This document shows, in pieces, positions 4,748-5,219 of a DNA stretch of 64,000 nucleotides. The DNA is taken from assembly GCF_044324875.1 (NCBI RefSeq), contig NZ_CP172185.1, one strand, 5' to 3'. Under the pieces are notes generated by a model. The model had not been told where the DNA came from and searched no databases. It saw only the letters and a list, made by a program, of their open reading frames with translations. The stretch's first letter is position 1. Each line of letters opens with the position of its first letter. A program made the translations under genes and the position numbers. This DNA is from Escherichia coli (GTDB lineage Bacteria > Pseudomonadota > Gammaproteobacteria > Enterobacterales > Enterobacteriaceae).

Positions 4748-4775
4748 TTGACTCATCGCGCCAGGTAAGTAGAAT
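4748..4775 (+). promoter_or_regulatory. sigma70 promoter of the glyW-cysT-leuZ tRNA operon (TTGACT-16 nt-TAGAAT, GC-rich discriminator)
   Basis: TTGACT at 4748-4753, TAGAAT at 4770-4775, followed by gcaacgc; AT-rich UP-like region upstream. Confidence 0.7.
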
Positions 4776-4848
4776 GCAACGCATCGAACGGCGGCACTGA
4801 TTGCCAGACGATAATAAAATCAAGTGATTAACTGATTGCTTGATGAAT

Positions 4849-4924
4849 GCGGGAATAGCTCAGTTGGTAGAGCACGACCTTGCCAAGGTCGGGGTCGCGA
4901 GTTCGAGTCTCGTTTCCCGCTCCA
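4849..4924 (+). tRNA. glyW: tRNA-Gly (anticodon GCC)
   Basis: GCGGGAATAGCTCAGTTGGTAGAGCACGACCTTGCCAAGGTCGGGGTCGCGAGTTCGAGTCTCGTTTCCCGCTCCA; cloverleaf with CCA end. Confidence 0.97.
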
Positions 4925-4978
4925 GTTTAAAAGACATCGGCGTCAAGCGGATGTCTGGCTGAAAGGCCTGAAGAATTT

Positions 4979-5052
4979 GGCGCGTTAACAAAGCGGTTAT
5001 GTAGCGGATTGCAAATCCGTCTAGTCCGGTTCGACTCCGGAACGCGCCTCCA
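4979..5052 (+). tRNA. cysT: tRNA-Cys (anticodon GCA)
   Basis: GGCGCGTTAACAAAGCGGTTATGTAGCGGATTGCAAATCCGTCTAGTCCGGTTCGACTCCGGAACGCGCCTCCA. Confidence 0.97.
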
Positions 5053-5064
5053 CTTTCTTCCCGA

Positions 5065-5151
5065 GCCCGGATGGTGGAATCGGTAGACACAAGGGATTTA
5101 AAATCCCTCGGCGTTCGCGCTGTGCGGGTTCAAGTCCCGCTCCGGGTACCA
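5065..5151 (+). tRNA. leuZ: tRNA-Leu (anticodon TAA), long variable arm
   Basis: GCCCGGATGGTGGAATCGGTAGACACAAGGGATTTAAAATCCCTCGGCGTTCGCGCTGTGCGGGTTCAAGTCCCGCTCCGGGTACCA. Confidence 0.97.
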
Positions 5152-5195
5152 TGGGAAAGATAAGAATAAAATCAAAGCAATAAGCAGTGTCGTGA

Positions 5196-5219
5196 AACCA
5201 CCTTCGGGTGGTTTTTTTG
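5196..5219 (+). terminator. Intrinsic terminator of the tRNA operon
   Basis: aaaccaccttcgggtggttt hairpin followed by T7 run. Confidence 0.8.

Follow-up and report, generated by a model that had tools for sequence, protein, structure and literature searches.

A glyW-cysT-leuZ tRNA operon of Escherichia coli with an unoccupied leuZ integration site

Genes for tRNAs can serve as integration sites for phages and genomic islands. This raises the question of whether the tRNA operon in a 64-kb stretch of an E. coli chromosome (the window) harbours such an element. An earlier note on the interval 4748-5219 had claimed that three tRNA genes are followed directly by a terminator and yecA, and that the locus is unoccupied, as it shows no integrase, no direct repeat of a tRNA 3' end and no compositionally odd DNA. 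We confirm this observation and support its interpretation: almost certainly, this is the native glyW-cysT-leuZ operon of E. coli, with the integration site in the empty (attB) state. The general premise that tRNA genes may be targeted holds as well and can be made more specific, i.e. leuZ is a documented and heavily used hot spot. The 3'ETS-leuZ sponge downstream of leuZ and the repeat that extends well past the tRNA, neither of which appeared in the earlier note, are described below.

The tRNA operon, its trailer and its terminator

An ARAGORN search of the whole window yielded exactly three tRNA genes, all on the plus strand, and the same three were recovered by the Rfam tRNA model RF00005 with 54-69 bits and E values between 8e-9 and 6e-13 (Table 1). 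Both the order Gly(GCC)-Cys(GCA)-Leu(UAA) on one strand and the position between pgsA upstream and yecA downstream identify them as the members of the glyW-cysT-leuZ operon. The surrounding gene order, uvrY-uvrC-pgsA-glyW-cysT-leuZ-yecA-tyrP, is that of the E. coli chromosome, and yecA is the only gene between leuZ and tyrP. The leuZ anticodon occupies positions 5099-5101.

Table 1. Coordinates of the operon, its flanking genes and the putative attachment block in the window
Feature	Position	Strand	Evidence and remarks
uvrC	2260-4092		uvrY also upstream of the tRNA operon
pgsA	4149-4697		CDP-alcohol phosphatidyltransferase, E 6e-39
Candidate sigma-70-like promoter, TTGACT-16-nt spacer-TAGAAT	4748-4775	+	consensus match 10/12
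glyW, tRNA-Gly(GCC)	4849-4924	+	ARAGORN; Rfam RF00005, 69.1 bits; K-12 annotation glyW
cysT, tRNA-Cys(GCA)	4979-5052	+	ARAGORN; Rfam, 54 bits; K-12 annotation
leuZ, tRNA-Leu(UAA), long-variable-arm tRNA	5065-5151	+	ARAGORN; Rfam, 57.7 bits; K-12 annotation
attB identity block (putative)	5096-5225	+	junction alignments; single copy in the window, hence empty
3'ETS-leuZ (3' external transcribed spacer)	5152-5218 (67 nt)	+	67/67 match to K-12 ncRNA b4759
Intrinsic terminator	5194-5218	+	centroid fold; sequence; description in PMC6191717
yecA	5347-6012	+	UPF0149 + SEC-C motif, E 2e-36; core gene beyond the integration site
tyrP	6074-7285	-	downstream of yecA

A comparison with K-12 MG1655, in which the three tRNA genes and 3'ETS-leuZ are annotated as b1911, b1910, b1909 and b4759, revealed the same genes in the same order and spacing, with the same strand relation to pgsA and yecA. 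Between positions 4690 and 5350 the two sequences differ by four substitutions without any gap. All of these lie in the flanks (4709, 5263, 5290 and 5300), and the stretch 4710-5262 is identical.

The interval of the earlier note starts with the first base of a promoter-like TTGACT. In a pattern scan of 4600-6200 this was the sole promoter-like site, a number that corresponds to chance frequency, as shuffled sequences gave a mean of 1.2. The site is identical in K-12 and lies about 75 nt ahead of glyW, a location from which it would drive the tRNA operon. A primary glyW-cysT-leuZ transcript has been detected (PMC6191717). In this strain, one transcript would start at the sigma-70-like promoter and comprise the three tRNAs plus a 67-nt 3' trailer, and its processing would free tRNA-Gly(GCC), tRNA-Cys(GCA), tRNA-Leu(UAA) and the 3'ETS-leuZ fragment.

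From its sequence, the trailer is the known 3'ETS-leuZ small-RNA sponge, an activity that we take from the literature: 3'ETS-leuZ is cut from the glyW-cysT-leuZ precursor by RNase E, pairs with RyhB and lowers RyhB levels (PMC6191717). The segment complementary to RyhB, AGCAGTGTCGTG at 5183-5194, is intact and forms a 12-pair core inside a longer duplex. When the trailer was paired with K-12 RyhB by means of RNAduplex, an energy of -48.2 kcal/mol was obtained, compared with -26.7 +/- 4.3 kcal/mol for 1000 shuffled trailers, none of which was as good. Since RNAduplex ignores intramolecular folding and extends the duplex along the full length of the trailer, the absolute energies are inflated, and only the comparison with the shuffled trailers and the 12-pair core were used as evidence for pairing. 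A released 3'ETS-leuZ would be expected to pair with RyhB and to reduce its level, as described (PMC6191717).

The trailer ends in a Rho-independent terminator (PMC6191717). In the window, a GC-rich hairpin after leuZ, with a nine-pair stem formed by GAAACCACC (5194-5202) and GGUGGUUUU (5207-5215) and a UUCG loop, leads at once into a run of seven T's (5212-5218), one base beyond which the interval of the earlier note ends (5219). Hairpin and T-run would end transcription ahead of yecA. The promoter/terminator pattern scan of 4600-6200 had listed no terminator. This is a false negative, as the hairpin and the T7 run are plain in both sequence and fold; we think that greedy extension of the stem consumed the first T's, so that too few were left in the tail window. 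The fold of the 74-nt trailer is no more stable than that of shuffled sequences (z -0.72) and offers no evidence of structure other than the terminator hairpin, which is expected because the A-rich trailer is mostly unstructured and has one short hairpin.

The attachment block and the occupied leuZ sites of other genomes

To place the locus among other E. coli genomes, a comparison that the earlier note had proposed, positions 4100-6100 were used as a megablast query. Of the 5426 complete genomes of E. coli, 5425 gave a match, and the matched stretches carry the annotations pgsA, tRNA-Gly, tRNA-Cys, tRNA-Leu and yecA. In 3781 of the 5426 genomes the match runs from pgsA to yecA without a break, and in about 1644 (30%) it is broken at positions corresponding to 5217-5228 of the window. 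leuZ is a real integration hot spot, and the empty site is the majority allele in the species. Several reports are in line with this: the Sakai prophage Sp13 sits at leuZ (PMC8190617), leuZ is a conserved prophage site in O121:H19 (PMC8767318), O145:H28 has an integrative element at leuZ (PMC7067040), and avian pathogenic E. coli O78 is listed as having a 'leuZ-associated island' of 26 kb (PMC4313913).

We inspected the occupied sites of six genomes, which represent three element types. TW08637 and O121:H19 16-9255 carry a P2-like prophage of 35-37 kb, the integrase of which adjoins yecA. WP3-W18-ESBL-07 and strain 875 have a lambdoid-type prophage with the integrase directly adjoining leuZ. 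In FDAARGOS_944 and M25631H, the site is taken by an island with an integrase and type I restriction-modification genes; the FDAARGOS_944 island (about 28 kb) holds integrases together with IS elements and with DUF262 and DUF4011 genes. The P2-like integrase-attR-yecA junction was found in at least 525 genomes and the island integrase junction in 356 genomes, both at a coverage of at least 80%. This leaves several hundred interrupted genomes, among them the two in which a lambdoid-type prophage was seen.

Alignment of the junctions delimits the sequence that the elements share with the empty site. The repeats were measured at two junction pairs and the divergence at attL in all six genomes. 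A stretch of 121 bp (5097-5217) is exact in both repeat copies around the P2-like prophage of TW08637, and about 130 bp (5096-5225) are duplicated around the FDAARGOS_944 island. The repeat begins within the leuZ anticodon loop; from there it runs through the remainder of the tRNA, the 3'ETS and the terminator, and its end lies a few bases downstream of the T-run. Divergence of the attL junctions from the window sets in at 5218-5226 in all six genomes, and in each of them the left junction reconstitutes an intact leuZ, the RyhB site and the terminator. It is important to note that the repeat of a tRNA 3' end, which the earlier note took as the signature of an integrated element, is a valid sign in a modified form: the repeat is 121-130 bp long, and the junction falls near 5217-5225 instead of at the 3' end of the tRNA (5151).

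The same block is found in free phages. The attP regions of phage 520873 and several vB_EcoM isolates are 98.5-100% identical to it, a sequence of mEp390 that is annotated as attP matches positions 5095-5217 of the window with 88.7% identity, and Fostie and Pectobacterium ZF40 match the block as well. In the window, 5097-5217 is intact and 100% identical to the TW08637 repeats, and the identity to the phage attP regions ranges from 88.7 to 100%; by sequence it is thus a putative attB. The last 55 nt of leuZ together with trailer and terminator (5096/5097 to 5217/5225) would then be the sequence that is present in the attP of tyrosine-integrase elements and with which they recombine. Integration would restore leuZ, sponge and terminator in intact form on the left, and a partial copy would end up beside yecA on the right.

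Each type of occupied site can be aligned with the window up to its element. With P2-like-occupied sites (the Sakai Sp13 type, as in TW08637 and O121:H19 16-9255) the window shares the left flank to 5217-5220 and the right flank from 5097, but it has neither the prophage nor the repeat confirmed in TW08637. With the leuZ island (FDAARGOS_944 and M25631H, the O145:H28 integrative element and the O78 island) it shares the attB block 5096-5225 and lacks the island. The left junction of the lambdoid prophage (WP3-W18-ESBL-07 and 875) diverges at 5221, and this prophage is absent from the window, too.

Two of the element kinds that insert beside yecA themselves carry genes annotated as YecA family (L001 22942-24081, L002 31908-32591 and L011 1498-2181). 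One is located in the P2-like prophage, the other between hsdS and hsdR of the type I restriction system of the island. The island copy shares 64% DNA identity with the chromosomal yecA over positions 5515-6010 of the window. This may be a coincidence or may reflect a role of the gene in defence systems.

An empty site and its possible histories

We searched the window for each trace that an integrated element would be expected to leave. With up to three mismatches allowed, none of the tRNA 3' ends recurs anywhere in the window, which includes the stretch 5150-6100 that the earlier note had singled out for this search, and no second copy of the terminator region was found in the window. Likewise, the 129-bp att block occurs once in the window, the next best match being 12 nt long (E 0.37). 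A tblastn search with four integrases from occupied leuZ sites gave a best E value of 0.15 in the 64 kb and nothing in 5150-6100. In a blastn search with about 75 kb of DNA from the occupants, no element DNA was found near the locus; the only matches were to an unrelated IS1 and a yecA paralogue. The GC content stays between 0.50 and 0.55 over 4500-6250, and the leuZ-yecA spacer (195 bp) has the same length as in K-12, from which it differs by three bases. Hence, an adjacent tyrosine integrase, a direct repeat of the tRNA 3' end and foreign DNA ahead of the conserved flank are all missing from this locus. As the block is present in a single copy and runs straight into yecA, the site is empty. 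Thus, the earlier note was right on each of these points: ARAGORN, Rfam, the fold and the gapless colinearity with K-12 bear out the direct succession of tRNAs, terminator and yecA, and the unoccupied arrangement is common to 70% of the complete E. coli genomes. In terms of the proposed mechanism, either no integration would have taken place in this genome, or an earlier element would have been cleanly reversed.

The latter scenario, in which leuZ was once occupied in this lineage and precise site-specific excision restored attB, concerns the history of the site; the present state would be the same. Occupation is common (about 30% of the genomes) and involves at least three element types, which speaks for frequent gain and loss, and precise excision leaves no scar. 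However, positive evidence is lacking. The block is identical to that of K-12, and the bases at 5161, 5168-5169 and 5204, where the copy of one island deviates, are of the host type, i.e. there is no element-derived polymorphism. We therefore regard a re-emptied site as improbable.

Much less probable still is an artefact of assembly in which the 121-130 bp repeat was collapsed and a real element was lost. Short-read assemblies can indeed drop insertions flanked by repeats or move them to separate contigs. Yet the window is otherwise a colinear 64-kb stretch of core chromosome, and a complete 768-bp IS1, a repeat on which assemblers usually break, is preserved in it; this suggests a good assembly and makes a collapse unlikely. 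Moreover, the empty arrangement is the majority state in finished genomes.

The presence of a degraded element remnant (an att copy, an integrase pseudogene or a foreign segment) in or just past the leuZ-yecA spacer can practically be dismissed: an antisense ORF of 96 aa (5258-5548) and a 27-nt similarity (81%) between 5195-5221 and 9100-9126 might be taken as hints, but the spacer is of K-12 length with only the three deviating bases, no Pfam family matches the ORF, which overlaps yecA in antisense, neither occupant integrases (tblastn) nor element DNA (blastn) gave a match near the locus, and 9100-9126 is the terminator directly 3' of azuC, which contains no tRNA sequence.

The two similar segments were also considered as an att pair around yecA-azuC. 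This candidate was rejected, as one partner is the azuC terminator without a tRNA part and the stems show compensating changes. In addition, the genes from yecA to azuC are core genes that lie outside the inserted element in the occupied genomes inspected. The resemblance of the leuZ and azuC terminators looks like convergence of terminator shape.

Hence, we retain the reading of a native operon with an empty attB. Nothing at this locus is novel, and everything found is already known and ordinary: the stretch belongs to the core chromosome and holds a textbook tRNA operon, and a well-used hot spot happens to be vacant in this strain, which is of little importance in itself. Nevertheless, since leuZ is a proven integration site, 'unoccupied' denotes a meaningful allele state. 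The practical use lies in annotation and strain typing, where the leuZ site can serve as a presence/absence marker: about 70% of the complete E. coli genomes have it empty, and in the others it holds a P2-like phage, a lambdoid phage or a defence island. The attB limits (5096/5097 to 5217/5225) allow leuZ occupancy to be scored.

Sponge alleles at leuZ and other features of the window

In all three element types examined, the att block spans the whole 3'ETS-leuZ sponge and the terminator. Each integration therefore swaps the expressed sponge allele of the host for the copy of the element. The FDAARGOS_944 island illustrates the difference between the two copies. Its left copy deviates by an A-to-C change at 5161, a 2-nt deletion at 5168-5169 and a T-to-C change at 5204, and its right copy is of the host type. 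From these sequences, the crossover in FDAARGOS_944 probably occurred 5' of 5161, inside the tRNA part of the block. The 3'ETS-leuZ expressed in this genome (left) is the island variant (L002, about 21062-21105), all three changes of which lie outside the RyhB pairing core, and the copy at the right junction, which is of the host type, is not expressed. The other island genome, M25631H, has the host-type 3'ETS sequence.

It is conceivable, albeit doubtful, that leuZ elements could in this way retune the buffering of RyhB (reportedly also of RybB), or else that selection on the sponge accounts for the roughly 66 nt of attP identity past the end of the tRNA. The idea of retuning arises because one island copy has three changes and because the identity between the mEp390 attP and the block of the host is only 88.7%. 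If it were true, the empty allele in the window would represent the unmodified reference state of the sponge.

Apart from the leuZ locus, several features of the window were noted in the comparison with annotated genomes. Strain Z1323HEC0462, which served as an annotated guide, is 100% identical to the window over 4100-6100 and 98-99% identical overall. The window differs from this strain by a complete 768-bp IS1 (37221-37988), which is located between cutC/MicL (the MicL end being at 37020) and torY and is flanked by a 9-bp target duplication, CATATTCTT, at 37212-37220 and 37989-37997. The exact IS1 junction occurs in none of the 5426 complete genomes; nine of them cover at least 80% of the query, the best with 97% in two pieces. 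Apparently, this insertion is strain-specific. About 133 bp between torZ and cmoB (41688-41820) are likewise absent from Z1323HEC0462. They hold palindromic units of the REP/BIME type, e.g. GCCGGATAAGGCGTTCACGCCGCATCCGGC, and represent ordinary repeat-copy variation.

The lowest GC content in the first 14 kb of the window (0.34-0.36) was recorded at 10001-10750, in the ftnB-araF intergenic region of about 0.8 kb. This is not an insertion, because a gap of similar length is present in the annotated genomes examined. Finally, a match to the Rfam C0465 RNA model (100 bits) was obtained at 23377-23454 on the minus strand, in what maps to the tar-tap part of the chemotaxis cluster in an annotated genome; it is an expected E. 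coli feature that is unrelated to the leuZ site.
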